Counted from the first letter of the stretch, positions 1 through 18,827 are shown. The stretch: 32,000 nucleotides of DNA from Trichodesmium erythraeum IMS101 (GCF_000014265.1 NC_008312.1:6540001-6572000), one strand, 5' to 3'. Program-made: numbers and translations. Notes: generated by a model from the sequence alone, not told the origin.

Positions 1-2760
1 CCTGTGAAATTATTAAATCAACAGGTTTATTATGAACATGGAGGTAATCCTTTTAAGGGGTTGCATCGCTGGTATTCTCGTAAACCTTTATCGTTTTCAA
101 GAGCTTCGGTTTTAGCTTCTTTATTGCCTGATGATATTTCTGTAGAAGAGTTTGAGTATTTATTAGGGTTGAAAAAGCGGAGCAATTCTATTCAAAAAAG
201 TGAACAGTATAAAGATGATACTAGGCTTTATAAAATTCCTCCTGATGAAACAAGAATTAAGCAGGTACATGACTACTGTGAGAAAACCTGGGGGACGAGA
301 ACACCTACTATTTTGGATGCGTTCGGTGGTGGTGGGAGTATTCCTTTTGAAGCAGCGCGGTATGGGTTGAATGTTTTGGCATCAGATTTGAATCCGGTGG
401 CAGTGGTGACAATGAAAGCAGCGATGGAATATCCTTTGAAATTCGGACCTGACTTGCAGCAGGATATTGATAAGTGGGTGCAGTGGGTAGAGGATGAGGC
501 AGAGAAACGGTTAGCTGAGTTTTTCCCGTCGTTGCCAGGGGAAACGGTGCAGAATTATTTGTGGGCCCATACGGTGGTTTGTCCGAGTTGTCAGTCGGTT
601 GTGCCTTTGAGTCCGAATTGGTGGTTATACAAACGCCCGGAAAAGCAGAATTTACATAAATGGTGTGCGGTGAAACCTATTCCTAATCTTGAAGGGAAGC
701 GGGTTGATTTTGAGTTGATAAAAGGAAGTAAGGGAAAGGGTACGACTATTAAGACTGATGAGGGTGAGTTCGACCCGAATGATTACAACACTATTAGTAG
801 GGGTGTGGGTAAATGTCCGAATTGTGGTAGCGTGATTGAGGATGATGCAATTAAATCTCAGGCACGGTCAGGAAAGCTTGGGCATCAAATGTATGCAGTG
901 GCATTTAAAAAAGGTAAGGGAAGTTTAGAGTTTAGATTACCTCAAAATGTTGACTTTGATGGATTGGGTAAAACTGATTATTATTTGAATAGTAGTTTTG
1001 AGGAATTTCAATTAAGTGGTTTATTACCAGAAATCGAAATTAACTCTGGTGAGAAAACAGACGAACTTATTAGATATGGAATTAACCAATGGTCAAAATT
1101 ATTTAATCCCCGTCAACTTCTAACCCTTGTCACTTATGTCGAAATTATTAACGATGTTAAGTTACAATTACAAGCAGAATATGAACCCGATAAAGTAGAG
1201 GCGATCGCTACTTATTTGACTTTGCTCCTAGAGCGGTGCATTGATAAAAATTCACGTTTATCTTGTTGGGATTCTTCGGTTGCAGTTGCTCAAAAGGCTT
1301 CTGTACAACACTCACTCAACTTGATGTGGAATTACCCAGAATTTAGCGGTAATGGAAAATTATGGAATTGGTGTTCCGATGTTACTTCAAATTACCAAAA
1401 GCTTTGTGCATTATTCAACTCTAAACCCCTACCTATTGACACCCAACAACACAACAAAACAATTCAAATAGACTCCGCATCAGCAGACACCCTCTACCAC
1501 ATCAGCGATAACTCAGTAGATGCCATCATCACCGACCCGCCCTACTACGCCACCATTCAATACGCCGAACTATCGGACTTTTTCTACGTCTGGCAGCGCC
1601 GAGTCTTAGGCGATATCTTCCCCGACCTCTACTTAACCGAACTCACCGACAAAGACAGAGAAGCAGTTGCCAACCCCTCCCGCTTCCGCAACATGGGAAC
1701 ATCCCCCGATGAACTTGCAAACCAAGACTACGAAGCAAAAATTGCACTCGCCTTTGCCGAACATTACCGAGTCTTGCGCGACGACGGCGTAATGACGGTA
1801 CAATTTAACCACAAAGAGTCCGGCGCGTGGGATGTCTTAGCAAAATCTCTCATTGACGCTGGTTTTGAAATCACCGCATCTTGGGCAGTCAGTACTGAAA
1901 ACCCCCAAAACCTCCATCAAGCTAAGAAAAATTCTGTTTCCAGCACCGTCTTACTTGTCTGTCGCAAACGTGACCCCAACGCCCCTCAAGCATGGTGGGA
2001 TGACCTGCAACCAGAAGTTGCCAACCAAGTAGAGGAACGCGCCCCCGACTTTGAAAAAAATGACATCACGGGAATTGACCTATATCTCAGCGCATTCGGC
2101 CCAGCATTAAACGTATTCAGTCGTTCCTATCCCATATTAGACAACAGTGGAGTAGAAGTCCGCCCCGAAGTCGCCTTTGCTGAAGCTAGAAAAGCGATCG
2201 CTAACTACCGCTTCCAGAAACTTGTACAAACAGACACAGCAGGCTTTGATATTTTGACCCAATGGTATTTATTAGCTTGGGATGCTTTCAGTGCCAGGGA
2301 GTTCCCCTTTGATGAAGCCAGACAACTTGCCCTAGCCATAGGAGGTTTCAACGTCAACGACCTGGTTAAAGTTCACAAATTATTAGACTCAACGAGTGGC
2401 ACTTGCAAATTATTAACACCCCGACAACGACTGAAAAAACGAGCATTTTCGGTCACTCCACAAGATTTTTCTAGTCAATATTTAGTAGATGACATTCATG
2501 CTATTATTGCTATTTATCAAGAAGAGGAAAATGTAGAAGTAGTCCGTCGGTTTATGGAAAAAACAGGATTATTAAGCAATGAAATGTTTATGCAAACTAT
2601 TGAAGTAGCATTAAAAGTAATTCCCGATAAAATAGAAGAGGAACAAACCTTGATGAATTTGTGTTTAATGATGGATGAAATTAAAGATAATGTCAGTACC
2701 CAAGGGAAACAATTAGAATTATTTGAACAGCAGTTAAGCTTAGATTTTGGAGATGTTTAA
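1..2760 (+). CDS. DNA methyltransferase of the DUF1156 / COG1743 type (Zn-ribbon-containing, DPPY catalytic motif); 5' end probably lies upstream of the window
   Basis: Frame 1 is open from base 1 (cct gtg aaa...), so the GTG at 4 is probably internal. GLHRWYSRKPLSFSRA resembles the DUF1156 H-x-WWARRP signature as I remember it. Motif I is DAFGGGGSIPFEAARYG (aa ~105). Cys pairs CPSC...CPNCG (aa ~193-276) form an inserted Zn ribbon. Motif IV is ITDPPYY (aa ~510). Confidence 0.85.
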   Translation, partial: PVKLLNQQVYYEHGGNPFKGLHRWYSRKPLSFSRASVLASLLPDDISVEEFEYLLGLKKRSNSIQKSEQYKDDTRLYKIPPDETRIKQVHDYCEKTWGTRTPTILDAFGGGGSIPFEAARYGLNVLASDLNPVAVVTMKAAMEYPLKFGPDLQQDIDKWVQWVEDEAEKRLAEFFPSLPGETVQNYLWAHTVVCPSCQSVVPLSPNWWLYKRPEKQNLHKWCAVKPIPNLEGKRVDFELIKGSKGKGTTIKTDEGEFDPNDYNTISRGVGKCPNCGSVIEDDAIKSQARSGKLGHQMYAVAFKKGKGSLEFRLPQNVDFDGLGKTDYYLNSSFEEFQLSGLLPEIEINSGEKTDELIRYGINQWSKLFNPRQLLTLVTYVEIINDVKLQLQAEYEPDKVEAIATYLTLLLERCIDKNSRLSCWDSSVAVAQKASVQHSLNLMWNYPEFSGNGKLWNWCSDVTSNYQKLCALFNSKPLPIDTQQHNKTIQIDSASADTLYHISDNSVDAIITDPPYYATIQYAELSDFFYVWQRRVLGDIFPDLYLTELTDKDREAVANPSRFRNMGTSPDELANQDYEAKIALAFAEHYRVLRDDGVMTVQFNHKESGAWDVLAKSLIDAGFEITASWAVSTENPQNLHQAKKNSVSSTVLLVCRKRDPNAPQAWWDDLQPEVANQVEERAPDFEKNDITGIDLYLSAFGPALNVFSRSYPILDNSGVEVRPEVAFAEARKAIANYRFQKLVQTDTAGFDILTQWYLLAWDAFSAREFPFDEARQLALAIGGFNVNDLVKVHKLLDSTSGTCKLLTPRQRLKKRAFSVTPQDFSSQYLVDDIHAIIAIYQEEENVEVVRRFMEKTGLLSNEMFMQTIEVALKVIPDKIEEEQTLMNLCLMMDEIKDNVSTQGKQLELFEQQLSLDFGDV

Positions 2761-2776
2761 ATAGCAATTTATAGTT

Positions 2777-2809
2777 AAAACTTCTACATTCAAAACTAAT
2801 AGAAGTTTT
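2777..2809 (+). terminator. hairpin between methyltransferase and helicase genes (possible weak terminator/attenuator)
   Basis: aaaacttcta (2777-2786) pairs perfectly with tagaagtttt (2800-2809). The loop is 13 nt. The stem is A/U-rich and the T-run is part of the stem. Confidence 0.3.
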
Positions 2810-2892
2810 ATCAGTAAAATTGCAGAGATAAAAGCCAACATAGACATTAAATTAATTCCCATAACTGATAATTGATAACTAATAACTGAAAA

Positions 2893-5800
2893 ATGCCTAA
2901 CTTCCGTTCCCATTATTGGTCTATTAGCTACTCCAGCAATGAAAATAATCCTATTGCTGACTTCTATATCCCAGCCTTAGAATGTGCTATTCAATATGAT
3001 AGAAAATCTGGTTTTTTTAGTAGTGCTATTCTCAGTAAAGTAACCAGAGGATTAGGAGCAATGCTTCAAAATGAAGGTAAAATACGTCTGATTATGGGAT
3101 GTCAATTTAACCCTCAAGATTTAGAAACCATTCAAAAAGGTTATGAGTTGAGAAAAGCTCTAACCCTTCGTCTTGATGCTGACTTAAAACCACCAGAAAA
3201 TTTTGCCCAGCTCAAACATTTTGAAATTCTTAGTTGGTTAATTTCTACAGGTTATTTAGATATTAAAATTGCCATTCCTCTTAAAAATAACGGACTGCCA
3301 GAAGCAAGCGATCAACAATTAGACCCCCAACATATTTTCCATGAAAAAGTTGGAATTTTTACGGATAAAAATGGCGACCAAATAGCCTTTAGTGGTTCTA
3401 ATAATGAATCATTAGGAGGATGGGAACAAAACGTAGAATCGTTTCATGTTTATTGTGCTTGGGAAGGAGAAAGAGACTTTGATAGAGTACAAGAAGAAGT
3501 ATATAGATTTGAGAAACTTTGGCATAATTTAGCTCCTAATGTGAAAGTATTTAATATTCCAGAAGCCGTTGCAGAAAAACTTTTACGTTATACTCCCTCT
3601 ACTAAACCCACTTGGAATGAAAAAGTTGAATTTGACACAAGACCATTACCATCAAAACTATCATATTTTTCTGACAACAAATCCGAGGAAAAAGAGGAAA
3701 GTAAAAACATATTTTCTACAGATAATATTGTCGAGAAAACCATCACAAATATCTCAGAAGCAGACAAAGAAAAAGAACTTCAAGCTTTTAATATTATCAT
3801 AAATTCTCATCAACATCCTGGTTGCCTAGACTACTGCTTACAATCCATCACAATCGACCCTTGGCCTCATCAAATAAAAATTCTTAAACAAGTTGCTAAA
3901 AAATTCCCCTGTAACTTTCTCATAGCAGATGAAGTTGGATTAGGAAAAACAATTGAAACAGGTTTAATCTTACGTTATTTACTCCTCACAAAAGCCATCC
4001 AACGAGTTTTAGTATTAGCACCAGCTAGCGTTCAACCACAATGGCAAGAAGAACTCAGAGAAAAATTTAATCTGCACTTTTGGAGTTACAACAAAGGAGA
4101 ATTTAAAGACCCCTACGATAACACTTCAACTATTAACAAAACTAACCCTTGGAACAGTCATAAACTAATATTAGCATCCTCCCATTTAGTCAGACGTGCT
4201 GAGAGAATGACAGAAATATTAGCAGCAGAAAAATGGGATTTAATTATTTTAGATGAAGCTCATCATGCTCGTCGCCAAGCCCCCCAAAATAGGAAAGAAA
4301 CCCCTAACTCTCTCTTGAAATTAATGCAGCAGTTACGAGAAAAAACTAAATCTTTAATCCTATTATCTGCCACTCCTATGCAAATAGATCCTATCGAAGT
4401 ATTTGACTTATTAGAACTTTTAGGATTAAAAGGACATTGGAGTTATGGGGATAATTTTTGTAACTATTTTGCCTCTTTATCAGGTAAACCAGACGAGCAT
4501 ACTTTCAATTTTTGGCAGGTAATGACTACAGATTATTTTAGACTAGGAGGAGTACCTTCCTCTCAGTTTGCATCCTATCTAAATAAAAGCGATCGCTTAA
4601 TGTCCTACCGCCTCCGAGATATTTGGCAACAAGGGAAAAAAATAGTTAATCATAAAAAACTAGCACAGGATAAACCCTTTGTGAATACTTCCCGCCAATA
4701 CCTAACTATTAATACTCCCCTCAAAGACTTGATGTTTCGTCACACCCGGGACACCTTACGTCAATATTATCGCCGTGGAATTCTCAATAGAGATATTCCC
4801 AAACGAGTTGTACAGGATAAAGCCATTATATTAGAACCCAACAGAGAAGTACAATTATATGTAGAAGTTAGTGACTATGTACGTCATTTCTATAAATTAG
4901 CTCAAAAAGAAAATCGTCAGGCGCTAGGTTTTCTAATGACTCTTTACCGCAAACGTCTCACCAGCTCGTTTTTTGCAATTCGGGAGTCATTGCAACGTCG
5001 TTTGGATGGTATTAGTATTACCGCTGACGACTTGGGAGACTTAGATGATGCTGACGATGCTATTATTACAGGATTAGAAAGTTATTGCCAAACTGAAACT
5101 GTAGACCCCCAGGAAATTGAATATTTAGAAAGTCTATTGTTGCAGTTTGAAAATACTGGTGAAGATACTAAACTATCTCACTTCATCACAACTTTAAGAA
5201 CAGAATTAATAGATAGAGACAGTGTAATTATATTTACCCAATATACCGACACAATGGATTATTTACGACGGACTTTAAAAGATTTATATGGTAGTCAAAT
5301 TGCCTGTTATTCTGGACGCGGTGGAGAAGTTTATCAAGATCAAAAATGGTGTCTAGTTCCTAAAGAGAAAATCAAACAAAAATTTCGAGCTGGAAGTATA
5401 AAAATATTATTATGTACTGAGTCAGCATCCGAAGGTTTAAACTTACAAACCTGTGGAGTAATTATTAATTATGATATGCCTTGGAACCCAATGCGAGTTG
5501 AACAGAGAATTGGTAGATTAGATAGAATAGGTCAATTTTATCCCACTGTGAGAATTTATAACTTTTATTATGATGGAACAGTAGAAGCTAAAGTTTATAA
5601 AAAACTGCGCGATCGTATTGATACTTTTCAAAATATAGTAGGCAACCTTCAACCTATTTTAGCCAAAGTTCCTACTTTTATAGAGAAAGCAGTTATGAGT
5701 GCCGACCCTGAAGAAGAAAATGTATTAATGTCTGATTTTGATAAAAATGTGTTAAATACTCCTCCATTAAGACCTGCTTTAGATGAGATGGTAGCCATGG

Positions 5801-6090
5801 ATGTAGAGACAGACTTGACGGAAATTAGACAACCGCTAATTCCTACAAATTTATCTGCTGAACTAATAGAAAACTTATTTACTGATTCGTTACTATTAAA
5901 ATTATCAGGGATAAAATTTACATTTTTAGAGGATAAATTGTGGCAGTTAAACTATCAAAATAGTAATTATCAAGTAACATTTGATGTGAATGTTTTTGAG
6001 GGTAAACCATCTGTAAGATTTATGAGCTTTGGAGAACCTTTATTTGAAGAATTGTTAGGGTTAATAATGAATAATAGCAGCAACCTTTAA
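2893..6090 (+). CDS. PLD-family nuclease domain fused to SNF2-family helicase (DISARM DrmD/DrmC-like or Hma-like helicase component)
   Basis: PLD HxK(x)4D(x)6GSxN motif: HEKVGIFTDKNGDQIAFSGSNN (aa ~149-171). Helicase motifs: ADEVGLGKT (I), ILDEAHHAR (II, DEAH), LLSATPMQ (III), ILLCTESASEGLNLQ, VEQRIGRLDRIGQ (VI). Same strand as the methyltransferase gene and 132 nt after it. Confidence 0.9.
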   Translation: MPNFRSHYWSISYSSNENNPIADFYIPALECAIQYDRKSGFFSSAILSKVTRGLGAMLQNEGKIRLIMGCQFNPQDLETIQKGYELRKALTLRLDADLKPPENFAQLKHFEILSWLISTGYLDIKIAIPLKNNGLPEASDQQLDPQHIFHEKVGIFTDKNGDQIAFSGSNNESLGGWEQNVESFHVYCAWEGERDFDRVQEEVYRFEKLWHNLAPNVKVFNIPEAVAEKLLRYTPSTKPTWNEKVEFDTRPLPSKLSYFSDNKSEEKEESKNIFSTDNIVEKTITNISEADKEKELQAFNIIINSHQHPGCLDYCLQSITIDPWPHQIKILKQVAKKFPCNFLIADEVGLGKTIETGLILRYLLLTKAIQRVLVLAPASVQPQWQEELREKFNLHFWSYNKGEFKDPYDNTSTINKTNPWNSHKLILASSHLVRRAERMTEILAAEKWDLIILDEAHHARRQAPQNRKETPNSLLKLMQQLREKTKSLILLSATPMQIDPIEVFDLLELLGLKGHWSYGDNFCNYFASLSGKPDEHTFNFWQVMTTDYFRLGGVPSSQFASYLNKSDRLMSYRLRDIWQQGKKIVNHKKLAQDKPFVNTSRQYLTINTPLKDLMFRHTRDTLRQYYRRGILNRDIPKRVVQDKAIILEPNREVQLYVEVSDYVRHFYKLAQKENRQALGFLMTLYRKRLTSSFFAIRESLQRRLDGISITADDLGDLDDADDAIITGLESYCQTETVDPQEIEYLESLLLQFENTGEDTKLSHFITTLRTELIDRDSVIIFTQYTDTMDYLRRTLKDLYGSQIACYSGRGGEVYQDQKWCLVPKEKIKQKFRAGSIKILLCTESASEGLNLQTCGVIINYDMPWNPMRVEQRIGRLDRIGQFYPTVRIYNFYYDGTVEAKVYKKLRDRIDTFQNIVGNLQPILAKVPTFIEKAVMSADPEEENVLMSDFDKNVLNTPPLRPALDEMVAMDVETDLTEIRQPLIPTNLSAELIENLFTDSLLLKLSGIKFTFLEDKLWQLNYQNSNYQVTFDVNVFEGKPSVRFMSFGEPLFEELLGLIMNNSSNL

Positions 6091-6220: not shown

Positions 6221-6421
6221 ATGTCGTCTTGGAAAGAGGTAGAAACTGCTTACGAGGATCTTTCCCCTCATTGGGGAGGCGAAAACCGTCGTCAACACGA
6301 ACAGCTATGGTTACCTGTGCAAGAACAAATAAAAAATTATCTAAATCGTCAAAGTCCTTCCTATACAGATTTTTTAAACTATAAATTACAAGTATTAAAG
6401 AGGTATTTAAGCGGTGGATAA
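6221..6421 (+). CDS. small helical protein with W-G-G (WXG-like) motif, hypothetical
   Basis: 66 aa with an ATG start. The stop overlaps the next start by 8 nt (GTGGATAA), suggesting translational coupling. HWGGENRRQ at aa 17-25. Confidence 0.5.
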   Translation: MSSWKEVETAYEDLSPHWGGENRRQHEQLWLPVQEQIKNYLNRQSPSYTDFLNYKLQVLKRYLSGG

Positions 6422-6659
6422 TTCTCTGAAAAATGCACTTTTATCCTATGAAACTGCCTTAAATCAGCATTTGCTGGTTCTTAAGGAAGAATTTGAGATG
6501 CTAGAAACAGCATGGCGATCGCTAAATGATGTCTATGAAGGATCAGCAGCAGAAGATTTCAAAGAAGTTTGGACAAAAACCATGGCCGATTTTGAAGATT
6601 CTGTTGGCAAGATAGAAACAATACTTTATTTTATCCGAGAAATCACTGAAAATGCCTAA
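6414..6659 (+). CDS. WXG100 (ESAT-6/EsxA)-like small helical hairpin protein, hypothetical
   Basis: 81 aa. The central VYEGSAAEDFKEVW matches the [W/Y]-x-G-x-A-x-x-x-F hairpin motif of WXG100 proteins (compare S. aureus EsxA NWEGQAFSRFEEQF). It is flanked by two ~35-aa helical stretches. The C-terminal YFIRE fits Y-x-x-x-[DE]. Confidence 0.6.
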   Translation: MDNSLKNALLSYETALNQHLLVLKEEFEMLETAWRSLNDVYEGSAAEDFKEVWTKTMADFEDSVGKIETILYFIREITENA

Positions 6660-6669
6660 TTGATTTAAT

Positions 6670-7671
6670 ATGACCATTCAAGATCCCCGTATTCTCATTA
6701 TCCTGCTCAATGACTTACTTGAAGAACTCAAACGGTGGACAATTACCACCCGTGAGACTTCAACTGATATGTCATGGTATCAAAATCAAGCAGAAGAAAA
6801 AGTTATACAAGCTCAATATAATGCTGCAATTATTCAAGATCAGGCAAGCAATGATCAAAAAGCAGTCGATCAGGCTAATGATGAAGTCGCTCAATTGTTG
6901 TCTAATTGTTATCAAGGGTTGGAAAATGCTCAACAAAATTTAAGACAAGCAGAAAACAGTGAACATCAGGCGCAATCAACCTTAAAGAATTGGCAAACTG
7001 AGTTAAATCTTGCGCTGGCTTGGTTAGAAAAAGCAGAAGCTAGATTACAATGCGCTATAGAGGAAAGAAAAAAAGCAGAAATTGATGTACGCAACGCAGA
7101 ATTAGAATTACAGAACGCACAAGTGGCCCTCAGCCTTTGCCAAAATTCTGGTTCTACTGATGATAAGGGGCGATATCATGCCCCAAATTGCTATCGTCAG
7201 GAAGCAAGAGTGATTCGAGCAAAAAATGCGTGTAAAGATGCTATTCAATCTTTAAATCAAGCCATTGAAGAAGAAGCGGGAGCAAGGGATGAATTGGCCC
7301 AAGCACAAGTAAGGGTAAATTGTTGTCGTAGTGCTGTGGGATATTCTAGACAAGCTGTTCGCACAGCAAATATTGCTTTAAATCATGCTAATTCCGCCCT
7401 CAGTTTTGCCGAACGCAGTTTAGAAAATGCTCATGCTGCCAAACGTGAAGTGGAAAGAGCACAAATTGAAGCAAAAAATGAGCAGGAAATAGCAAATTTA
7501 ATGTCTTTAGCCGTTAATACAGCGCAAAAACTGACAGAAGAAGCTAGAAGTGACTTTAAAGAAGCAGAAAACTTAGGAAACCTTGCCCAACGCCTAGAAG
7601 TAGCAGTTTCCAGAGAATTAGAGGATAGGGTAGAAAGTTTGATTGAGTTAAATCGTCCACCTTTATTTTAA
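6670..7671 (+). CDS. coiled-coil protein, hypothetical (possible LXG/WXG-type helical substrate-like protein)
   Basis: 333 aa, starting 10 nt after the previous stop. Almost entirely Q/A/E/N-rich heptad-like sequence. SWYQNQAEEK (W-x-x-x-x-A) near aa 35. Eight Cys residues. No enzymatic motif seen. Confidence 0.7.
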   Translation: MTIQDPRILIILLNDLLEELKRWTITTRETSTDMSWYQNQAEEKVIQAQYNAAIIQDQASNDQKAVDQANDEVAQLLSNCYQGLENAQQNLRQAENSEHQAQSTLKNWQTELNLALAWLEKAEARLQCAIEERKKAEIDVRNAELELQNAQVALSLCQNSGSTDDKGRYHAPNCYRQEARVIRAKNACKDAIQSLNQAIEEEAGARDELAQAQVRVNCCRSAVGYSRQAVRTANIALNHANSALSFAERSLENAHAAKREVERAQIEAKNEQEIANLMSLAVNTAQKLTEEARSDFKEAENLGNLAQRLEVAVSRELEDRVESLIELNRPPLF

Positions 7672-7692
7672 ACAATTTGGAGAGTAAAACAG

Positions 7693-8094
7693 ATGGAAAT
7701 GGGAGACACCCTTTGGAGAATGAAACAGCGATCGCGCACTTTACAAGAGTATCGTAAAGATATTCGAGGTTCGTGGCAAGATGAGGCAGCAAAAACTCTT
7801 AACCATCGTTATCTTAACCCCCACGAAGATGATGAACAGAAAATGATAGAATTTATGGAAAAACAGGTTCAAGGTTTAGAAAAAGCTAAGAATGAGTTGA
7901 AAAAGGCAAAAGAATACGCTTTAGAAGCCGATCGCTACTCCCAAAAAGTTGAACATTTCTTAGAACGAGAAAAGCAAGAAGTAAAACAAGCTAATCATTC
8001 TTATGATCTGTCTATAGAATATTATGGTTTAACTCAAGCAGAATTGCTTAATATTGACGAATTAATTCAACAAGCTAACCGCAGTTGTGGTTAA
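7693..8094 (+). CDS. small helical protein with WXG-like motif, hypothetical
   Basis: 133 aa, starting 21 nt after the previous stop. GSWQDEAAKTL at aa 26-36, followed by K/E-rich coiled coil. Confidence 0.6.
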   Translation: MEMGDTLWRMKQRSRTLQEYRKDIRGSWQDEAAKTLNHRYLNPHEDDEQKMIEFMEKQVQGLEKAKNELKKAKEYALEADRYSQKVEHFLEREKQEVKQANHSYDLSIEYYGLTQAELLNIDELIQQANRSCG

Positions 8095-8124: not shown

Positions 8125-8727
8125 TCAAACCCTATCAATGACCTGCTTAAAAGACTTAGAAAAGTCATCTGTAGGAACACCCACCATCAATGCCGAATCA
8201 TGCCGTAGATGAATTTCCACATCCCGTTTTCTTTCCAAAAACAGACTCGCTTCCGATAAATGACGGGGTGAGAGAAAATGAACCACCTGATTAGAGGAAC
8301 CTCGCCAACCTTTATTATCATTTAATTGCTCAATATATTGTCCGTCAATGAGAACATCTACTAAAGTCAGAATATCATCAATTGCCTGATCTGATTGACT
8401 TTGCAACTGCTGAAGAGAAAAACCCGTAAAACAAATAATTGAAATCTGACGACCCTGGCGAAGATAGATGAATAATTCCCTCAGAGCGATCGCTTGTAAC
8501 ATTGGTTCTCCTCCTGAAACCGTGACACCTTCAGTACCGGGAACCGACAAAATCATCTCAGCTAACTTTTTTGGCTCTATCAAAGTAGCTTGTGTTTGAG
8601 GTATCCATTCGGGAGAAACACAACCCTTGCAGTTAAAACAGCAACCTTGTACCCAGATCGCAAATCTTTGGCCAGGACCTAAAGTACGAGTAGCAGAACA
8701 TATTTCAGCAATATTGAGTAAAGTCAT
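8125..8727 (-). CDS. radical-SAM activating enzyme of the NrdG / anaerobic RNR-activase-like family (Fer4_12, COG0602-like), orphan
   Basis: 200 aa. N-terminal GPGQRFAIWVQGCCFNCKGCVSPEW carries the CxxxCxxC cluster motif in the NrdG-like context. VTVSGGEPMLQ is the GGEP SAM-binding motif. It is the last gene of the Hsp70 operon. Confidence 0.8.
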   Translation of the reverse strand: MTLLNIAEICSATRTLGPGQRFAIWVQGCCFNCKGCVSPEWIPQTQATLIEPKKLAEMILSVPGTEGVTVSGGEPMLQAIALRELFIYLRQGRQISIICFTGFSLQQLQSQSDQAIDDILTLVDVLIDGQYIEQLNDNKGWRGSSNQVVHFLSPRHLSEASLFLERKRDVEIHLRHDSALMVGVPTDDFSKSFKQVIDRV

Positions 8728-8819
8728 ATCAGTACCTGTACAAAATTAATTGAATATTTAGCATAAGTAGCACCAAAAGCAATTAGCATTTTTGCTTGAT
8801 TTTGTATTCCTGATTCTAA

Positions 8820-9905
8820 TTATAAAATAATAGAATTTTTCGTTTTAGCTTGTTCATTCTGACGACGAGCTTCAGCCAATTCTCCATCAATTTCTGATAA
8901 TAAATTTCGGATATTTTCCATCATTTTTTCAACTTTATTCTGGTCTATTGGTAGTAAAGTTCCTAGAGCCTTATTAGATTGATAATGGGTATTTATAATA
9001 GCTAAAGCTTCCTCAGTAGCAGTTTGATACTTTTGAAATTCAGCATTTGCCGCTTGTAATTGCTCCTGCACCGAAACATATTCTTGTTGTTGCTTTGAGA
9101 GTTGATTTCTTTGTTCTTGGAGAAGATTTAACTCTCTGGATAAAGCAGCTGATAAATCTTCTCTTTGTTGTTGAGTTATAGTTATTAATTCCTTCACAGT
9201 TTCCGTAGTTTTAATTTCTCGATTATTTTGCCGAGACTGCCAGTATTCAATCTCTTCCCTCAGAGTAGTTTGCTGATGTTCTAGAGCAGTTATTCGATCA
9301 TCCAATTCTGCCTTTTGTCTCTGTAGAGATGCTAACTTTTGCTTTTGTGGTTCTAGGTAAGCAGCTTGAGATTCGAGAGCTTCTTGTAAATTATTAATAT
9401 CCGTTTCTTTGAGTTCTATTTCTATTTTCTGTAGGTGCTTTTCTTTTTGTTTTAAGTTTTGCAATTCCTGACTTTTTTGCAGTAGTTCTGCCTCTTGGTC
9501 AAACAGAATTTTTGCTGACTCTAGTAGCTGAGATTTTTCTTGAGTAATTTTTTGAATAGATGCAAAACCATTATTAATTTTATCTCTCATTTTGGGTGGA
9601 ACTGACAACTCTTCTAAATGAGGCAACCAATTATTGAGAACTTCTAATTGTATATCCAGGGTTTTTCTCAGAGCGATCGCCCAAGCTTCCAAAGTATCTG
9701 AATCAGTATCTGCTACCTGTTGTAAGATTTCAGCAGTAAAGCACATTTTCCATAAAATTACTCCTAATTCTACCAATTCAAAAGGCAATTTAATGGTATC
9801 AAATTCCGTGAAATTTTTAGATAGCTGAAATTTCTGAATTAGTCTAATAAATCGTTGTATTTCTTGTTGCATTTCTTGTTGTTGTTCTGGTAGTAAATTC
9901 ATCAC
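8820..9905 (-). CDS. coiled-coil protein, hypothetical
   Basis: 361 aa and Q/E/L-rich with long heptad-like stretches. It lies 45 nt downstream of the Hsp70 gene and 92 nt upstream of the radical-SAM gene, all on the same strand. Confidence 0.75.
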   Translation of the reverse strand: MMNLLPEQQQEMQQEIQRFIRLIQKFQLSKNFTEFDTIKLPFELVELGVILWKMCFTAEILQQVADTDSDTLEAWAIALRKTLDIQLEVLNNWLPHLEELSVPPKMRDKINNGFASIQKITQEKSQLLESAKILFDQEAELLQKSQELQNLKQKEKHLQKIEIELKETDINNLQEALESQAAYLEPQKQKLASLQRQKAELDDRITALEHQQTTLREEIEYWQSRQNNREIKTTETVKELITITQQQREDLSAALSRELNLLQEQRNQLSKQQQEYVSVQEQLQAANAEFQKYQTATEEALAIINTHYQSNKALGTLLPIDQNKVEKMMENIRNLLSEIDGELAEARRQNEQAKTKNSIIL

Positions 9906-9950
9906 TTAATAATAGGTATAGTAGGTAAATATCAGACAAATATTATATTT

Positions 9951-11546
9951 TCAATCCTCATCAGGTTTGAGTATATAACCAGGAAACATTTTAGAAATTA
10001 TCTCACCCAACTCATATTCAATTTTGCTTTCTCCTCCTTGACTTTCGATTACTAAATAAGCTATGTGAGAGCGGTCTACCTTCATACCAACTCGATATTT
10101 TGTATTAGGAGAATAATTAGGTAACTCAATCATATCTGCCAGAGAGTTTTGATGTTTAAAACCTTTAGATTGAATTTGGACCCACAAAGTAACAGTTACT
10201 CGTCGTTCTATTGGTTCAATTTCTTTCTCATAAAAATTTGTCTCTGCCAAACTATCTAAACTAGAACCTCCTTTAATCAAAGGAATATTTATTTTATCTC
10301 TTTCTCCTGTAAGAGCAATTGTTTCTAAGATAATACCTAAAGTATGAACATATTTTTCTGTAGGCTCAACTAAACCATTAGCAATCAAACAAGCACCATA
10401 AGAGATAGCATAAGCACTATTAGTAATATTAAAACTTTGCTCAATTCGCACATCATTTCTCTCAAAACCCAAAATATTTTTAATCTCTTCTTGCACTAAA
10501 ATAAACTGAGAAAATCCACCCACCATAAATAAACGATCTATTGAATAACCTTGGATTTTAATTTGCTCAATAACTCGTTTCATAACTTTTTGAATTCCTT
10601 GAGCAATAGGAGTAAATGCTTTCTGAACCTCCTCTAAAGAAACCGAATATCCTTCACCAAATTTATAAGCTTCATCATTAGCTTTGTCTTCTGGAGCATC
10701 CAAATAATTTATGAGTCTTCTAGTAGCTTTTACATGATTAGCAATTTTAACATTTTCAAATTCTCTAAGTAAGCGAATAAACTTTGAATCATTTTCCTGA
10801 ATCTGTTCACCAAATTGTTTTTGATATGCTATTTGAACAATATTTTTATCGAAAGCAACCCCAGCAGATTCTAACCCTTTATCTCCTTCTCCATCAAAGT
10901 AGAGAACTTCAATTTTATTGTTGCTATAAATTCGACATAAACTCACATCAAATGTCCCACCTCCCATGTCGCAAACTAATAAGTTACCCTGAAAAGGATT
11001 AGTATTTTCTTCCTGAGCACGACGCTGCATTTCCCAAGCATAATAAGATGCTGCTGCTATAGGTTCGCTTACCAGTTGAATTAGTTGTTTTTCTAATCCT
11101 AAATCTTTCTTAATTAACTCCTGTAAACGTTCCCTACCGAGATTATAAATATCCCGCTGCCAAATTTCTGGCACTGAAACAACTAAACGTGAAATTTCTC
11201 CTTGTTCTTTAGTAAAACTATAGTCATTATCTGGAGAAATTAATAGTTCTTTTAAGTAATCAATAGTAACACTGATAGGAGTACGATTATTCTTAAAATA
11301 TTGATTAAATTCAGATTCTGGTAACGGCAATCGCATTTTAAATTGACCGTAAGTTTCAATCTCAGGATCGTAGACAGCAATTTTCCGAGCTGAAGACCCT
11401 ATTTCAATACCTTCTAAGTCATAGGCAATGAAAGAAGGAATATACTTTTCTCCATTTAATGGTGGATAGGAATAAGCTTCAGGTTTATCGTTAGTAATAA
11501 AAGAAATAATTGAATTAGTAGTTCCGAAATCTAAGCCAATTTTCAT
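9951..11546 (-). CDS. Hsp70-family ATPase, non-canonical (beta-type substrate domain, no helical lid)
   Basis: 531 aa. Motifs: KIGLDFGTTNS (phosphate 1), LVSEPIAAASYY, LLVCDMGGGTFDVSL (phosphate 2), MVGGFSQF (adenosine). The C-terminal ~145 aa is beta-rich (VTVTLWVQIQ, YRVGMKVDRSHIAYLVIES). There is no lid and no EEVD tail. Confidence 0.9.
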   Translation of the reverse strand: MKIGLDFGTTNSIISFITNDKPEAYSYPPLNGEKYIPSFIAYDLEGIEIGSSARKIAVYDPEIETYGQFKMRLPLPESEFNQYFKNNRTPISVTIDYLKELLISPDNDYSFTKEQGEISRLVVSVPEIWQRDIYNLGRERLQELIKKDLGLEKQLIQLVSEPIAAASYYAWEMQRRAQEENTNPFQGNLLVCDMGGGTFDVSLCRIYSNNKIEVLYFDGEGDKGLESAGVAFDKNIVQIAYQKQFGEQIQENDSKFIRLLREFENVKIANHVKATRRLINYLDAPEDKANDEAYKFGEGYSVSLEEVQKAFTPIAQGIQKVMKRVIEQIKIQGYSIDRLFMVGGFSQFILVQEEIKNILGFERNDVRIEQSFNITNSAYAISYGACLIANGLVEPTEKYVHTLGIILETIALTGERDKINIPLIKGGSSLDSLAETNFYEKEIEPIERRVTVTLWVQIQSKGFKHQNSLADMIELPNYSPNTKYRVGMKVDRSHIAYLVIESQGGESKIEYELGEIISKMFPGYILKPDED

Positions 11547-11968: not shown

Positions 11969-12832
11969 ATGGAACAATGTCCCATATGTGATACTAAATT
12001 TACGAAAGGAGAGGTTAATTATTGCGCTACTTGTGGTTGGGATTTAACTCCATATCCGATAAGTTTTGAATTACCAGAGTCTTTTGTTCAGAAGGAACGG
12101 GATAAAATTTATTGGGCTAAGAATTTATGGCAGAAAATGGAATCTCAATCAGGGCAATATAAATCCGATCTATCTCAACAACAATTTCAATTCTCTGATG
12201 CCCAATTAAAAATAGAAAATTTGGAGGCAGAAAATAGAGATTGTTTGTTTAGGATAGAAGGGTTGAATCAACAATATTCTGACTTACAAACTCGTAAAAA
12301 AGAAGTAGAAGAGCAATTAGAAAATTCCGAGAATAAATGTTCCCAACTCCAAAGTAAAATAGAAAATTTGGAGGGAGAAAAGATAGAATTTTTATCTCAA
12401 ATACAAGAGTTAAATCAACAACATTCTGACTTGCAAACTCAGAAAATAGAAGTAGATGGTCAATGTTACCAACTGCAAATTGAAATAGAAAATTTAAAGG
12501 CAGAAAATAAGGGATTGTTGTCTAAAATAGAAGGGTTAAATAAACAATACTTTGACTTACAAACTCAGAAAAAAGAAGTAGAAAATCAGTTAGATTCGTC
12601 TCATAACAAGTCTTTTAACTTGCAAACTGAAAATGAGAGACTGGAGCAAGAAAACAAAAGTTTTTTGTCTCAAGTAAAACAGTTAAATCAAGAACTATCA
12701 AATGTGAAAAATGAGTTATCTGAAAAGAAAAGAGAATTAGAAGAACTTGAACAAGAATTATTATCTTTGCGATCGCAACAACCAAGTACAAACTTAAGAG
12801 GAAAAAGAAATATATGGGATATAGAAAACTAA
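11969..12832 (+). CDS. N-terminal Zn-ribbon protein with tandem coiled-coil repeats, hypothetical
   Basis: 287 aa. CPICDTKF...CATCGWDL forms a four-Cys ribbon. It is followed by four IENLEAEN...LNQQYSDLQTQKKEVE repeat units. Confidence 0.8.
   Translation: MEQCPICDTKFTKGEVNYCATCGWDLTPYPISFELPESFVQKERDKIYWAKNLWQKMESQSGQYKSDLSQQQFQFSDAQLKIENLEAENRDCLFRIEGLNQQYSDLQTRKKEVEEQLENSENKCSQLQSKIENLEGEKIEFLSQIQELNQQHSDLQTQKIEVDGQCYQLQIEIENLKAENKGLLSKIEGLNKQYFDLQTQKKEVENQLDSSHNKSFNLQTENERLEQENKSFLSQVKQLNQELSNVKNELSEKKRELEELEQELLSLRSQQPSTNLRGKRNIWDIEN
12209..12760 (+). repeat. in-frame tandem repeats (147, 126, 147 nt units plus a diverged fourth) inside the Zn-ribbon coiled-coil gene
   Basis: Unit starts (aaa/gaa ata gaa aat ttg...) are at 12209, 12356 and 12482, and the diverged unit starts at 12629. 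Nucleotide-level similarity is clearly visible, e.g. caacaatattctgacttacaaactc / caacaacattctgacttgcaaactc / aaacaatactttgacttacaaactc. Confidence 0.85.
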
Positions 12833-12901: not shown

Positions 12902-13891
12902 TTAACTCAAATCCCAATCAATTTGGATCTTTTTTCCACTTAAATAAATATCTGTACTACTTAAATCTTGTTCTCTAGCCAGTACATTTATCATTTCTAT
13001 AGTTTTTTGTAATTGCATTTCTGCTTGTCCTAAACTTTCGTTCAGTCTCTGAATTCTACGTCTATTAATCCATCGATTAAATAAATTACTTTCCAGAACC
13101 TCAAGTTGATCATCAATTTCTGTGAGTTTTTCATCCTGTATTCGTGCTTGTTCTGTCAGGATACAATATAAGACAAAAGCTACAGGAATATCAAGATTTC
13201 TAGGTTCAATTTTTCCATTATCGCTATTTTTAGCAAGCTCCTTACCTAAAGTAACTGGACAGATCATTACTAACCAATCAGAGTTAGGAGCAAACAAAGG
13301 AGGAAACATTTTTTTGACATCTTCCATTAATTCTATTTTGTTTCTATGATAACAATAGTCATACTTAGTAACAATAATAACAATTGGAAAAGTTTTTTTT
13401 CGAGCTGGTCTTCTATTGATATTCAAATATTGCAGATACTGACCCATGAGGTTAGCTTTACTTTCCATTGCAATCTTTTGCAGATTAGCCTCAGTAACTG
13501 GCTCCCTTAAATCTTTGCCTGATATACAGAAGAATAAGCCATTAGATTCAGCAGCATAATTTCTAAGTGTCCTAACGTTATCATCACTGGATATGTCTAA
13601 CATAGAACCGCCACGGTAGTCCAGCCATTCAAACTCTATTAATGATTTGTATGCGTAGCAAAGTTCAAAGTTGTAAATTTGAGGTGTATCGGTACCTCGA
13701 GGCCAACGTTCCTCACCAGATTCGCCCACGATCGTTGACCATAAAGTAGCCATTTCAACGCCTTCATCTGGATCGGTTGCCTTGAGACTGAATTTACTAC
13801 CATTTTGAATAGCTGCATACATTCCTAACATAAAGCAGGTTTTGCCTGAACTTGAATCTCCTAGCATCAAAATTTTAATTTTCTCAGACAT
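12902..13891 (-). CDS. Ras/Rab-like small GTPase domain with C-terminal coiled coil
   Basis: 329 aa. G1 is KILMLGDSSSGKT, G3-like is WLDYRGG, G4-like is IIVTKYD ([NT]KxD). The C-terminal ~100 aa is a helical coiled coil. It lies 85 nt downstream of the 344-aa ORF on the same strand. Confidence 0.75.
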   Translation of the reverse strand: MSEKIKILMLGDSSSGKTCFMLGMYAAIQNGSKFSLKATDPDEGVEMATLWSTIVGESGEERWPRGTDTPQIYNFELCYAYKSLIEFEWLDYRGGSMLDISSDDNVRTLRNYAAESNGLFFCISGKDLREPVTEANLQKIAMESKANLMGQYLQYLNINRRPARKKTFPIVIIVTKYDYCYHRNKIELMEDVKKMFPPLFAPNSDWLVMICPVTLGKELAKNSDNGKIEPRNLDIPVAFVLYCILTEQARIQDEKLTEIDDQLEVLESNLFNRWINRRRIQRLNESLGQAEMQLQKTIEMINVLAREQDLSSTDIYLSGKKIQIDWDLS

Positions 13892-13975: not shown

Positions 13976-15010
13976 TCAATTTTTAGTTGTACTGTTCTCA
14001 AATACTCTTCCTAGATAAAAACCAATTAATATACTTATAAATATATCTAAGATATATATTTTAAAGATAAATAAGAGCATAAAAAAAAGAAAAGCTGAGA
14101 TTAATAATATCCAAGTTATATGTTTCCAGAAAATAGAATCTGATAATCTTTTTGCAAAAGTATCTATTGAATTATTATAGACATCTTTTGTGCTATTGGA
14201 ATCATCTTTAATGTCAGGTTTTAAGGAATCATTTATGACTTTTGAATTCGGTTTAACTAACTTTATAAGTTGAGTTGCGTCAGAAGTTGTAGCATTTAAA
14301 AATGGTCCTTGTAAAACATCTTGCTTTCGAGGAATACCTAGGCAAAGAGAAAGAGTTATATATTTATATGGATAATCAAAGAACTTACAACAACTTTCCC
14401 ACAAATTGTGTCTATATTCTGGTTCGTCAGGGCAAATAAAAGCTTGATTTTCTCCTTCCGAGCATGGTATAAAATTTGGGTTTATAGATTTATTTAAGAC
14501 ATTAATATAATCTCTAAATTCTGTCACATTAGAATAATTTAGTACTAACTCATACGGATATGCATGAATCTTTCCTTTAGTAAATTGGTAATCTTTTAGA
14601 TACCACAGGTTTTTTAAAGATGTTAGTAAATACTCAGACTTAAAAAATTCAAGGTCTTCTAAGCCAGGCAAAATCTTCAATGAATTAAAAGAATATTTGT
14701 TGATTCTAGCAACATAACCAACGAAAATATGGAGCGATCGCCCAGCAGCATCCTTGGCCAGATATTTATATTCTGGTTCGGAACCAATTAACTCCCTAAC
14801 CATACAAGTCACGCCGAAAATACAATGCTTATGATTCTTAAATAGAGACCAACGAGGATTCCCCCGTAACTTCTCTGCATAGACTGTAGTCCCATGAATA
14901 TATTTGCGTGCCCAATTCTTTTCTTCTATTCCAAAATCATTGGGAATGGCCAGAAAACGATAATCGGCTTCTTTGGTTCTACCGTAAACTATTACAGACC
15001 ATAAGTCCAT
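13976..15010 (-). CDS. hypothetical protein with C-terminal double transmembrane anchor
   Basis: 344 aa. The N-terminal ~290 aa is globular with no motif I recognise. The C-terminus ITWILLISAFLFFMLLFIFKIYILDIFISILIGFYLG forms two hydrophobic helices. It contains a HIP1 site at 14734. Confidence 0.65.
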   Translation of the reverse strand: MDLWSVIVYGRTKEADYRFLAIPNDFGIEEKNWARKYIHGTTVYAEKLRGNPRWSLFKNHKHCIFGVTCMVRELIGSEPEYKYLAKDAAGRSLHIFVGYVARINKYSFNSLKILPGLEDLEFFKSEYLLTSLKNLWYLKDYQFTKGKIHAYPYELVLNYSNVTEFRDYINVLNKSINPNFIPCSEGENQAFICPDEPEYRHNLWESCCKFFDYPYKYITLSLCLGIPRKQDVLQGPFLNATTSDATQLIKLVKPNSKVINDSLKPDIKDDSNSTKDVYNNSIDTFAKRLSDSIFWKHITWILLISAFLFFMLLFIFKIYILDIFISILIGFYLGRVFENSTTKN

Positions 15011-15369: not shown

Positions 15370-16761
15370 ATGACAAATCGCATTCGACCTCGCTCTCGTC
15401 GTCAGAATAAACCCCAAGAAGAGCGTGATATAGCCTTAATGGTTGTACTGACTTTTTTCAACCTTGGTAGTGGTGCCACAACTATCTTGGGAGCCATGCA
15501 AATATTACCAATCAAATATTTAGCTTGGACTCTTGGCGGTGCTGTTCAACTAATGTTGTTCATCTTACAAGCAGGATTAGCGGCCAATCGTACTCCTTTA
15601 CGCAAATGGTTAGCGATTATGGTATTAGCTACCGCCAGTGTTTATACTAGCTTTTTTACTTATTATGACAAACTAGCTCAAGGAACCAATGAAAAGCGGG
15701 GTATGGATATGGCACTCAAAGCTCATAATAGATTAATTTCAGAGGTATACACGCCAATGGAAGACCATCTTCGAGATTTACAACAAGAAGCTTTAACTCT
15801 TAGAGAAACTGCCAAAGCAGAAAAAGACAGAGGTATTGACACTGGATTGATTGGTTATGGAGATCAAGCAAGGAAATTTGATAAGCTAGCTCTAGAGAAA
15901 GAGATCGAAGCTAAAAATTTTCTGAATACAGTTAATCAACTTCGCCCATTGTTTGAATACAAGAGCAGAGACCTCAAACCAGTGGATATTTTGAACAAGG
16001 ATAGAAAAGCTCTATCTTCGGCACCAGAAAACTTTCGTAATAATTATCCTGAATTAAAGCGTGGTGACTATATAGATGAAGACTTGGAATTTTCCTTACT
16101 TGCCCCATATCTTAAAGTAGTAAAGAATCAGGAGGAAGCTGCTCTCCTAGCTTTGATAATTGCAATAGGAGTAGATGGGATGGCAATTATGTTGGGAACA
16201 GCAATTGTTGTCAAGTTGATACCACCCGAAGAACGTCGCTCTCCTATTGCTATTGTTGGTAATTCTATCGCTAATTTTATTAGAGATATTAAAAAATCGT
16301 CTGCCAAAGTAGATAATGCTAGTAGAGAGTCTTTCCTAGCAGAAGACGAGGATTTGCAGGCTGCGGTAGAATATGTGACTTTGAACGTGAAAGGAAAAGG
16401 TTCAAATTTTCTCAACGATTTTTACTATGCTATCTTGGAAATAGAACCACATACTATTAATTATTCAGCACTGACGCAAAAATATAGAAATTATGATAAT
16501 ATGCAAAATCCAGTCCGAGCATTCATTGATAAGCTAAGAGAGCCAAGAAGGTTGTGGGTAATAAGAAACCAGGAAAATACTGAGTGGATGGTGCCGCCAG
16601 AACATTATCATCAACTTGTAAATTGGCTACAAAAAGAAATTAAACGCCAAAAAAGCTTAGAAGCAGAGAAAAAGATAGATTATGGTTTTGGATTTTCTGA
16701 AGAAGAAACTACTATCCAATTTCAAATGCCTAAAATGCCAGTAAATCCTAATTCTAACTGA
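15370..16761 (+). CDS. multi-pass membrane protein with central coiled coil, hypothetical
   Basis: 463 aa. Basic N-terminus (RIRPRSRRQNK). Three hydrophobic helices within aa ~20-100, a coiled-coil segment, then a fourth hydrophobic helix (AALLALIIAIGVDGMAIMLGTAIVV). Confidence 0.7.
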   Translation: MTNRIRPRSRRQNKPQEERDIALMVVLTFFNLGSGATTILGAMQILPIKYLAWTLGGAVQLMLFILQAGLAANRTPLRKWLAIMVLATASVYTSFFTYYDKLAQGTNEKRGMDMALKAHNRLISEVYTPMEDHLRDLQQEALTLRETAKAEKDRGIDTGLIGYGDQARKFDKLALEKEIEAKNFLNTVNQLRPLFEYKSRDLKPVDILNKDRKALSSAPENFRNNYPELKRGDYIDEDLEFSLLAPYLKVVKNQEEAALLALIIAIGVDGMAIMLGTAIVVKLIPPEERRSPIAIVGNSIANFIRDIKKSSAKVDNASRESFLAEDEDLQAAVEYVTLNVKGKGSNFLNDFYYAILEIEPHTINYSALTQKYRNYDNMQNPVRAFIDKLREPRRLWVIRNQENTEWMVPPEHYHQLVNWLQKEIKRQKSLEAEKKIDYGFGFSEEETTIQFQMPKMPVNPNSN

Positions 16762-18519: not shown

Positions 18520-18572
18520 GAATTACCACCCTAGTTATTGTTGATTATTCAGGACGTACACAAAATATGAAC

Positions 18573-18673
18573 AGGACTTACGAAGGCAAACTCCGCAAAC
18601 CTGGTTTTTCCTAGATATTTATGTGTTAAAAACAACGATTTACTGTAGAAACCGGTTTTTTTGCGTAAGTCCT
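18573..18673. repeat. MITE-like element bounded by inverted repeat AGGACTTACG / CGTAAGTCCT
   Basis: aggacttacg at 18573-18582 and cgtaagtcct at 18664-18673 are perfect 10-bp arms. Related gcgtaagtcctg occurs at 18739-18750 and tttttgcgtaagtc at 21593-21606. Confidence 0.45.
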
Positions 18674-18691
18674 AATGAAAATATACCCCAT

Positions 18692-18730: not shown

Positions 18731-18827
18731 CGCTTGGTGCGTAAGTCCTGTTATTGTTATATGTAGGGACGTTGTATCCAACCTCTCTACCCATACCCCC
18801 GCTCAATAAAATATTAAATTGTTAAAA

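Follow-up and report, generated by a model that had tools for sequence, protein, structure and literature searches.

A 32,000-nucleotide stretch of the Trichodesmium erythraeum IMS101 genome (NC_008312.1:6540001-6572000), referred to below as the window, carries three adjacent minus-strand genes encoding an Hsp70-like ATPase, a coiled-coil protein and a radical S-adenosylmethionine (radical-SAM) enzyme that resembles NrdG, the activase of the class III ribonucleotide reductase NrdD. This trio forms one half of a five-gene module that is conserved and partly mobile; the second half encodes a conserved hypothetical protein, named w495, and a tandem AAA+ ATPase. We regard it as an even call that the module is a chaperone- and unfoldase-coupled, protein-directed radical-SAM system, probably acting as a nucleoside triphosphatase (NTPase)-based conflict system of multicellular bacteria, the target and chemistry of which we infer. 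The five genes of the module, with the basis of each assignment, are as follows.

11546..9951, minus strand: Hsp70-like ATPase, predicted to be lid-less, 531 residues (open reading frame call, Pfam HSP70, AlphaFold2 model, Foldseek)
9905..8820, minus strand: putative coiled-coil adaptor, 361 residues, the conserved part being the C-terminal ~200 residues (open reading frame call; no Pfam family)
8727..8125, minus strand: NrdG-like radical-SAM enzyme with a family-specific C-terminal extension, 200 residues (Fer4_12, NrdG model)
17032..18519, plus strand: w495, conserved hypothetical protein, its predicted structure made up of long helices and a small alpha/beta domain at the C-terminus, a family of ~480 residues, 495 residues in the window (homology across radical-SAM loci)
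18819..21368, plus strand: tandem CbbX/SpoVK/EccA-type AAA+ ATPase, 849 residues (two AAA modules with AAA_lid_6)

The Hsp70-like, coiled-coil and radical-SAM genes are co-directional, with intergenic gaps of 45 and 92 nucleotides in the open reading frame (ORF) listing, in agreement with the original prediction, which was made from the sequence alone. That prediction took the three genes as a self-contained operon with an orphan activase, and is supported in part: the unit is larger by two genes, and these two, w495 and the AAA+ ATPase at 17032..21368, are the most constant partners of the radical-SAM enzyme across phyla. The two halves of the module lie 5.5 kb apart on opposite strands in the window and are divergent in Trichodesmium. 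Locus L007 of the metagenome-assembled genome (MAG) Trichodesmium sp. MAG_R02 has a radical-SAM gene 98% identical to that of the window and the same gene order. A promoter and terminator scan around the trio is uninformative because its counts match the shuffled expectation.

Recurrence of the five-gene module

A genome scan with an alignment of the radical-SAM family yielded at least 80 loci in many phyla (this and all other locus counts are among the matches listed), and the ORFs of these loci were searched with the window proteins and with family hidden Markov models; single-linkage BLAST clustering had merged the coiled-coil and AAA proteins. Across 74 loci, a w495 homologue is present near the radical-SAM gene in 43, the AAA+ gene in 39, both of them in 34, an Hsp70 homologue within 10 kb in 31, and Hsp70 together with the coiled-coil gene in 19; none of the four partners is present in 12. 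Where both flanks extend for 8 kb or more, w495 and the AAA+ gene accompany the enzyme in 22 of 27 non-cyanobacterial loci, and the coiled-coil gene in 14 of 15 cyanobacterial loci. The w495 homologue directly follows the radical-SAM gene in most non-cyanobacterial loci, and the order radical-SAM, w495, AAA+ is co-linear in 16 of them. The order Hsp70, coiled-coil, radical-SAM, with gaps of about -3 to +28 nucleotides, is found in Chloroploca, Pyrinomonadaceae, Ruminococcus and cyanobacteria, and so spans cyanobacteria, Chloroflexota, Acidobacteriota and Firmicutes. Homologues of all three trio proteins are common in filamentous cyanobacteria, and the trio itself is present in Lyngbya PCC 8106 and Scytonema hofmannii PCC 7110. 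The gene-neighbourhood comparison thus shows that the trio recurs across phyla, so that the concern that its genes might never be neighbours in related genomes is removed.

Calothrix PCC 6303 carries the five genes side by side on its mobilizable 56-kb plasmid pCAL6303.02. More distant relatives of the radical-SAM enzyme, with 30-36% identity and the same C-terminal extension, are also carried on plasmids. The relative on Moellerella pW18-2-a is accompanied by a large AAA protein, a PIN protein, a hypothetical protein and a ClpB-D2-like AAA_2 ATPase and adjoins ardA; that on Rhizobium pRLgr12_2 is accompanied by an AAA_2 (ClpB-D2-like) protein and a 2086-residue AAA protein; those on Bacillus and Paenibacillus plasmids are accompanied by AAA and DUF2997 genes, with a DUF1257 gene in Paenibacillus only. 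Among 11 viral matches, a single viral-classified contig (IMG/VR UViG_3300019373_000210) carries the radical-SAM, w495 and AAA+ module. This contig has the radical-SAM gene, a gene for a 382-residue protein, two w495 paralogues and a gene for a 1203-residue AAA+ protein, and may be prophage-borne or misclassified.

Scattered module genes are also seen in some cyanobacteria, namely in Desmonostoc, Laspinema/Oscillatoria, Arthrospira and Oxynema. Among these loci, the radical-SAM gene either stands alone by a transposase gene or has ~3.4 kb of housekeeping genes between it and the coiled-coil gene, and the Hsp70 gene of Arthrospira stands alone and adjoins GUN4 genes.

A radical-SAM clade distinct from NrdG

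The 200-residue radical-SAM protein is matched by Fer4_12 at 2.9e-30. Its best NCBIfam model is NrdG (TIGR02491), with a score of 94.4 bits (6.5e-27) under a cut-off of 126.1, and PRK11121 scores 63 bits against a cut-off of 199. The PflA, QueE and viperin models score 53, 20 and 15 bits, respectively, the viperin cut-off being 180. The NrdG-style N-terminus described in the original prediction is confirmed: the CCFNCKGC and GGEP motifs are kept across the family, with C29, C33, C36 and G72-G73-E74-P75 invariant. When the family is aligned with its distant relatives and three phage NrdG proteins, the GxG of the GxGxR loop, CX3CX2C, GGEP and GS-NQ are all invariant and the loop arginine is nearly so. 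The enzyme shares with NrdG and PflA the same core of ~150 residues, the CX3CX2C and GGEP motifs, the N-terminal GxGxR loop and the C-terminal GS-NQ motif and, by analogy with them, would be expected to abstract hydrogen from a protein substrate.

Two features distinguish the family from NrdG and PflA in addition to the score under the NrdG cut-off. NrdG is a compact protein of ~150-160 residues ending just past GS-NQ, whereas the module enzyme is longer, with a conserved C-terminal extension of ~50 residues (residues ~150-200) that the three phage NrdG proteins do not have. The best profile matches span positions ~3-199, extension included, fragments aside. The aspartate of the DGxGxR loop, which is present in E. 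coli PflA and the three phage NrdG proteins, is replaced by leucine in the window enzyme and by leucine, glutamate or asparagine in its relatives; this aspartate is said to contact the substrate in the structure of PFL-AE. The family is represented by 552 clusters at 50% identity and an E-value of at most 1e-30 in a profile search of 1.84 billion representatives, and its cyanobacterial orthologues show 62-84% identity. At the level of sequence, these comparisons place the enzyme in a large clade distinct from NrdG that keeps all radical-SAM catalytic motifs. The invariance of these motifs across phyla is as expected for an active enzyme.

A metagenomic protein of 483 residues, P0366, consists of an extended NrdG-like radical-SAM domain (25-160) fused to a CbbX-type AAA+ domain with AAA_lid_6 (271-482), a fusion that may be an artefact of assembly or gene calling. 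In another protein, P0363, a TPR segment is located N-terminal to the radical-SAM domain.

The chemistry of the enzyme could be directed at a molecule other than a protein. The Fer4_12 fold also houses QueE, a small-molecule enzyme, and the module enzyme could likewise act, as viperin and QueE do, on a nucleotide or another small molecule. Its product would be toxic or serve as a signal, and the AAA+ ATPase, Hsp70 and coiled-coil protein would be sensors or regulators. The weak matches to QueE, viperin and prokaryotic viperin (pVip) models and the lack of an identified protein target are in line with this. However, the protein activase models score far higher (NrdG 94 and PflA 53 bits against QueE 20 and viperin 15), the enzyme keeps the GxGxR loop that characterizes protein activases, the recurrent partners (Hsp70, CbbX-type AAA+ and ClpB-like AAA+) all handle proteins, and no gene for nucleotide processing, be it a nucleotide kinase, a cyclase or another, recurs in the loci. 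We consider a nucleotide or small-molecule substrate unlikely, and the analogy with viperins drawn in the original prediction gains no support from the viperin score.

A role mainly as a sensor, in which the [4Fe-4S] cluster or the SAM site informs the ATPases of oxygen, redox state or SAM depletion and no substrate is transformed, would suit hosts that are largely aerobic or oxygenic, such as cyanobacteria and Nocardia, although the sensing itself is conjecture. Classical glycyl-radical chemistry is disfavoured in such hosts. Every catalytic motif is invariant across phyla, including GGEP and the C-terminal GS-NQ that NrdG also has, as expected of an active enzyme, and a purely sensory enzyme is very unlikely.

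Search for a glycyl-radical partner

The original prediction stated that the window lacks a large glycyl-radical protein, and this statement holds: when all six frames of the window are scanned for R[VIT]xG[FYW], only stop-to-stop segments of 20-28 residues carry the motif. No family with a C-terminal R[VIT]xG[FYW] motif is recurrent among the locus ORFs, where 11 scattered chance matches are found, and nrdD is absent from the window and from every related radical-SAM locus examined. The same pipeline recovers positive controls. A scan of viral contigs for the radical-SAM family gave 11 matches, and the four inspected closely (L093, L095, L098 and L099) are bona fide NrdG genes beside NrdD, in which an NrdD with the motif RRITGY is encoded directly upstream of the phage NrdG.

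Three module proteins were considered as new glycyl-radical proteins and rejected. In Hsp70, an invariant YRVGM sequence of the beta-domain resembles a degenerate RVxG motif, but it lacks the spacer residue and, in the alignment and the AlphaFold2 model, lies within a predicted strand rather than at a loop tip, and is therefore treated as structural. In the coiled-coil protein, no glycine is conserved within the C-terminal ~130 residues of the conserved part, which speaks against a glycyl-radical site in that region. The AlphaFold2 model of w495 shows no glycyl-radical-enzyme barrel and has no significant match in PDB or BFVD.

These results bear on the simplest explanation of the radical-SAM gene, namely that it encodes the housekeeping activase of a glycyl-radical enzyme, NrdD or another, whose gene lies in a different part of the genome. 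NrdG is indeed the best curated model, and JGI often names the homologues 'anaerobic ribonucleoside-triphosphate reductase activating protein', whereas NCBI names them only 'radical SAM' or '4Fe-4S single cluster domain'. The score under the NrdG equivalog cut-off, the C-terminal extension, the missing loop aspartate and the absence of a glycyl-radical-motif ORF from the window and of a recurrent one from related loci all argue against such an activase. Moreover, the module enzyme is never beside nrdD or pfl in the loci examined, unlike the phage NrdG controls, and is instead linked to Hsp70 and, across phyla, to w495 and AAA+ proteins, to the last even by fusion in P0366. A housekeeping activase is thus extremely improbable, and the suggestion in the original prediction that this is not an ordinary nrdDG case is upheld.

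Hsp70-like protein and its coiled-coil partner

Pfam HSP70 (PF00012) matches the 531-residue protein at 3.7e-23 over the nucleotide-binding domain only. The ATPase residues D6, K70, E161, D193, G195 and T198 are invariant in an alignment of 41 sequences of the Hsp70-like family. The protein is far under the DnaK and HscA equivalog cut-offs, the DnaK model scoring 76 bits against 822. The beta substrate domain is invisible at the sequence level and is seen in the AlphaFold2 model only. In this model, which has a mean pLDDT of 89, the nucleotide-binding domain is formed by residues 1-390 and a beta-rich domain by residues ~395-520, followed by one short helix, and the chain stops at residue 531 with no helical lid. 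Consistently, Foldseek aligns the whole model with full-length and lid-truncated DnaK and BiP structures at an E-value of ~4e-23 over ~580 columns. Since the domain layout of the model, the chain end and the DnaK/BiP alignment agree, the protein is, as modelled, a lid-less Hsp70 with a beta substrate domain, which is how the original prediction described it. No DnaJ or GrpE family is detected among the window ORFs scanned against Pfam, so that, as had also been noted, neither cochaperone gene is adjacent.

The 361-residue coiled-coil protein has no family in Pfam or NCBIfam model searches. Its gene is located directly upstream of the radical-SAM gene, usually with a gap of -3 to +10 nucleotides. 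In Nostocales, the same C-terminal region forms the end of a protein of ~1260-1316 residues, and the Calothrix copy that was scanned has TPR repeats. The protein behaves as the partner of Hsp70, and is read as its adaptor, because a Lyngbya paralogue follows a second Hsp70 without a radical-SAM gene and genes of similar size are found elsewhere: in Oxynema and a Desulfobacteraceae MAG, an unannotated gene for ~346-348 residues, comparable to the coiled-coil gene in size, comes after Hsp70 with no adjoining radical-SAM gene.

The Lyngbya PCC 8106 paralogue belongs to a second module (L002, 12065-16780) that consists of a 577-residue Hsp70, a 552-residue protein and a 354-residue coiled-coil paralogue, with no radical-SAM gene. 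Scytonema hofmannii has a counterpart (L005, 3310-6607) with a 581-residue Hsp70 and a 516-residue protein.

w495 and the tandem AAA+ ATPase

No Pfam, NCBIfam or PADLOC family matches w495 above threshold, and its homologues are named 'hypothetical protein' in every naming source, save for one UniRef label of 'Smc'. The AlphaFold2 model of w495 has a pLDDT of 77 and, apart from the small alpha/beta domain, consists of long helices; comparison with PDB and BFVD yields no structural match.

The 849-residue AAA+ ATPase is matched by SpoVK at 2.3e-153, CbbX at 1.3e-128 and EccA at 1.4e-127, and by the CbbX structure 3SYK/3SYL at 1.7e-56. Both of its AAA modules contain a Walker A motif (GNPGTGKT) and a Walker B motif (LF[IV]DEAY), as read in the sequence. 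Both modules belong, with AAA_lid_6, to the family of CbbX (the red-type Rubisco activase), SpoVK and EccA1. In contrast to these proteins, the modules are arranged in tandem behind an unrelated N-terminal domain of ~300 residues, for which no PDB homologue is detectable, and the gene is linked to the radical-SAM enzyme and not to Rubisco, sporulation or ESX.

Neighbouring genes and possible conflict setting

In the window, the two halves of the module are separated by a cassette that encodes a zinc-ribbon and coiled-coil protein, a DO-GTPase2-like GTPase and two putative membrane proteins.

11969..12832, plus strand: zinc-ribbon and coiled-coil protein, 287 residues, possible accessory protein or effector-adaptor (DUF7491 coiled coil)
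12902..13891, minus strand: DO-GTPase2-like GTPase, 329 residues, between the module halves (PF19993)
13976..15010, minus strand: 344-residue protein with a hydrophobic C-terminus, co-occurring with the GTPase (open reading frame call; no family found)
15370..16761, plus strand: 463-residue protein, apparently membrane-spanning, upstream of w495 and of uncertain module membership (open reading frame call; no family found)

Homologues of the window GTPase are found in four loci only, with paralogues beside the module in L007, L016 and L033, and homologues of the 344-residue protein are found beside the GTPase in four loci. The 463-residue protein is seen only in the window and in the Trichodesmium MAG locus L007. 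The Chitinophaga locus has the gene order DO-GTPase2, GAP1-N2, radical-SAM, w495 and an AAA+ gene fused to STAND and TPR domains, and is the sole locus with a full GTPase/GAP1 pair beside the radical-SAM gene. In Thiomargarita, the neighbours are AAA_21 and DUF4276 genes, and transposase and restriction-like genes neighbour the module in some loci.

The N-terminal ~70 residues of the 287-residue protein form a zinc ribbon (CPIC...CATC) that recurs at the N-termini of other proteins in related cyanobacterial loci. These include three GUN4-domain proteins in Lyngbya (L002, 4128-7089), a dynamin-like protein in Scytonema (L005, 14073-16580) and several other proteins encoded next to the module. 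This segment looks like a shared adaptor domain carried by variable genes, similar to those that PMC7159879 describes on the variable effectors of conflict systems.

Immediately upstream of the module, a 918-residue DUF1156/HmaB-like DNA adenine methyltransferase (PADLOC HmaB, 2.6e-81) is encoded on the plus strand within 4..6090, followed in the same interval and on the same strand by a 1065-residue PLD-SNF2 helicase that is matched by the PbeA, PLD_Helicase, BrxH and DrmD models at ~1e-75. The methylase and the helicase look like an Hma-like restriction or defence pair.

Proposed function

In the favoured reading of the module as a protein-directed radical-SAM system, the enzyme would be catalytically active and would act on a polypeptide, as do its closest relatives NrdG and PflA, but its target is unlikely to be the loop of a canonical glycyl-radical enzyme. 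The beta-domain of Hsp70 and the coiled-coil/TPR adaptor may capture or present a client, and the AAA+ ATPase may unfold it or thread it, which would bring a C-H of the backbone or of a side chain within reach of the 5'-deoxyadenosyl radical. The client might then undergo a stable modification or an oxygen-dependent backbone cleavage at the radical-bearing residue. The anti-phage or abortive-infection part of this reading is suggested by the defence-island setting, carriage on plasmids, the STAND/TPR fusions, the association with DO-GTPase/GAP1 and the zinc-ribbon adaptor on variable genes. A more specific version, in which the radical-SAM enzyme is the immune or conflict effector itself, is rather doubtful: Hsp70 and the adaptor would catch a protein of the phage or of the host, the AAA+ ATPase would pass it on to the enzyme, and a backbone radical would lead, in these mostly aerobic or oxygenic hosts, to its oxygen-dependent cleavage or inactivation, which may be termed 'radical proteolysis'.

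A number of observations weigh against the favoured reading. Concerning its conflict setting, the window GTPase scores 27.2 bits against PF19993 DO-GTPase2, a borderline value at a cut-off of 27, and no GAP1 is detected among the scanned window ORFs. A search of all components against PADLOC-DB v2 returns noise or generic matches only (PDC-M61B at 1.9e-4, pVip at 3e-4, and IetA/TRIP13 via the generic AAA domain). Several loci carry the radical-SAM gene without other module genes. Module genes are interspersed with housekeeping genes in Laspinema/Oscillatoria (L006 and L022-L026) and are dispersed among them in Oxynema and Arthrospira as well, a pattern that resembles long vertical residence, and the identity of 62-84% shown by the cyanobacterial radical-SAM orthologues is unusually high for a defence gene. 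Concerning its protein target, the candidates rejected above leave no target residue in w495, in the YRVGM strand of the modelled Hsp70 or in the conserved C-terminus of the coiled-coil protein.

Some of these observations would fit a non-defence module of filamentous or multicellular bacteria, in which the radical-SAM enzyme serves the maturation, repair or quality control of a cellular protein or complex with dedicated chaperones. The strong conservation of the cyanobacterial radical-SAM, Hsp70 and w495 proteins and the dispersal of their genes among housekeeping genes agree with such a role, and the AAA+ modules have as their closest solved relative CbbX, which remodels a metabolic enzyme. 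On the other hand, the spread of the module is patchy (~27 cyanobacterial species representatives at a radical-SAM identity of at least 62%, among the matches listed), it is carried on plasmids, its neighbours include restriction-like, DO-GTPase, STAND-fusion and transposase genes, an N-terminal adaptor is shared by variable genes, and the neighbourhoods contain no conserved candidate client gene. A cellular role of this kind is unlikely on this evidence.

The favoured reading would extend the activity of activase-type enzymes beyond their familiar setting. To our knowledge, every known NrdG/PflA-type activase is dedicated to a glycyl-radical enzyme that works in anaerobic metabolism. The large activase-type clade of the module is wired to protein-remodelling ATPases, namely a lid-less Hsp70 (as modelled) and a tandem AAA+ ATPase of the CbbX type (ClpB-like AAA+ proteins in distant relatives), and many of its hosts are aerobes or oxygenic phototrophs, some copies being plasmid-borne. 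If the radical-SAM enzyme acts on a chaperone-presented polypeptide, its chemistry would form a new class of protein-directed radical-SAM reactions and would bring a new effector type to the chaperone- and NTPase-based conflict systems predicted in multicellular bacteria; we know of none of those systems that has yet been tested. If the effector role holds, it would be the first glycyl-radical-activase-type enzyme to act as an effector of an immune or conflict system. The contiguous Calothrix plasmid operon provides a compact and directly testable construct.

Comparison with known systems

No published description of a radical-SAM/Hsp70/AAA+ module was found in a literature search, and the pairing of Hsp70 with an NrdG-like enzyme, which the original prediction took to be undescribed, was found neither there nor in PADLOC. 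Among the closest known systems are the predicted GTPase-centred conflict systems with Hsp70, GrpE and DnaJ-fused FNIII proteins (Kaur, Burroughs, Iyer and Aravind 2020, PMC7159879), in which variable effectors carry shared adaptor domains and which have no radical-SAM or CbbX-type AAA+ component. The module resembles these DO-GTPase/GAP1-N2 systems in having, in the window, a DO-GTPase2-like gene (a borderline match) inside it, the Chitinophaga pair beside the radical-SAM gene, an Hsp70 component and an enrichment in filamentous and multicellular bacteria, and the predicted logic is the same, with NTPase switches and chaperones coupled to variable effectors. It differs in that GrpE, DnaJ and GAP1 are not detected in the window and most module loci have no DO-GTPase.

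The type III CoCoNuT systems (Bell et al. 2024, PMC11090510) contain the Hsp70-like CnuD, coiled coils and SpoVK-type tandem AAA+ proteins, with no mention of radical SAM. They share with the module a lid-poor Hsp70-like protein with nucleotide-binding and substrate-binding domains, coiled-coil partners and, in some cases, a tandem SpoVK AAA+ protein, all within predicted defence superoperons. However, the module has no McrBC GTPase/nuclease, HEPN or CARF component, and the Walker motifs of CnuD are described as degenerate (PMC11090510) whereas the ATPase residues of the module Hsp70 are invariant. Prokaryotic viperins are also radical-SAM enzymes in a defence context but belong to another radical-SAM subfamily, the viperin model scoring 15 bits against 180 and the PADLOC pVip match (E-value ~3e-4) covering the cluster-binding segment only.

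Other parts of the window

On the far side of the radical-SAM gene, four small co-directional genes on the plus strand (6221..8094), encoding proteins of 66, 81, 333 and 133 residues that are helical or coiled-coil and have no family, converge on the radical-SAM gene and end 30 nucleotides from its stop. The 81-residue protein is WXG100-like by eye, and no model matched it. Beyond the AAA+ gene, 21400..32000 is sparsely coding and contains short ORFs, including a DDE_3 transposase fragment at 26922..27284 and an N-terminal fragment of GmrSD at 27741..28133. This region looks like decayed mobile-element and restriction genes.

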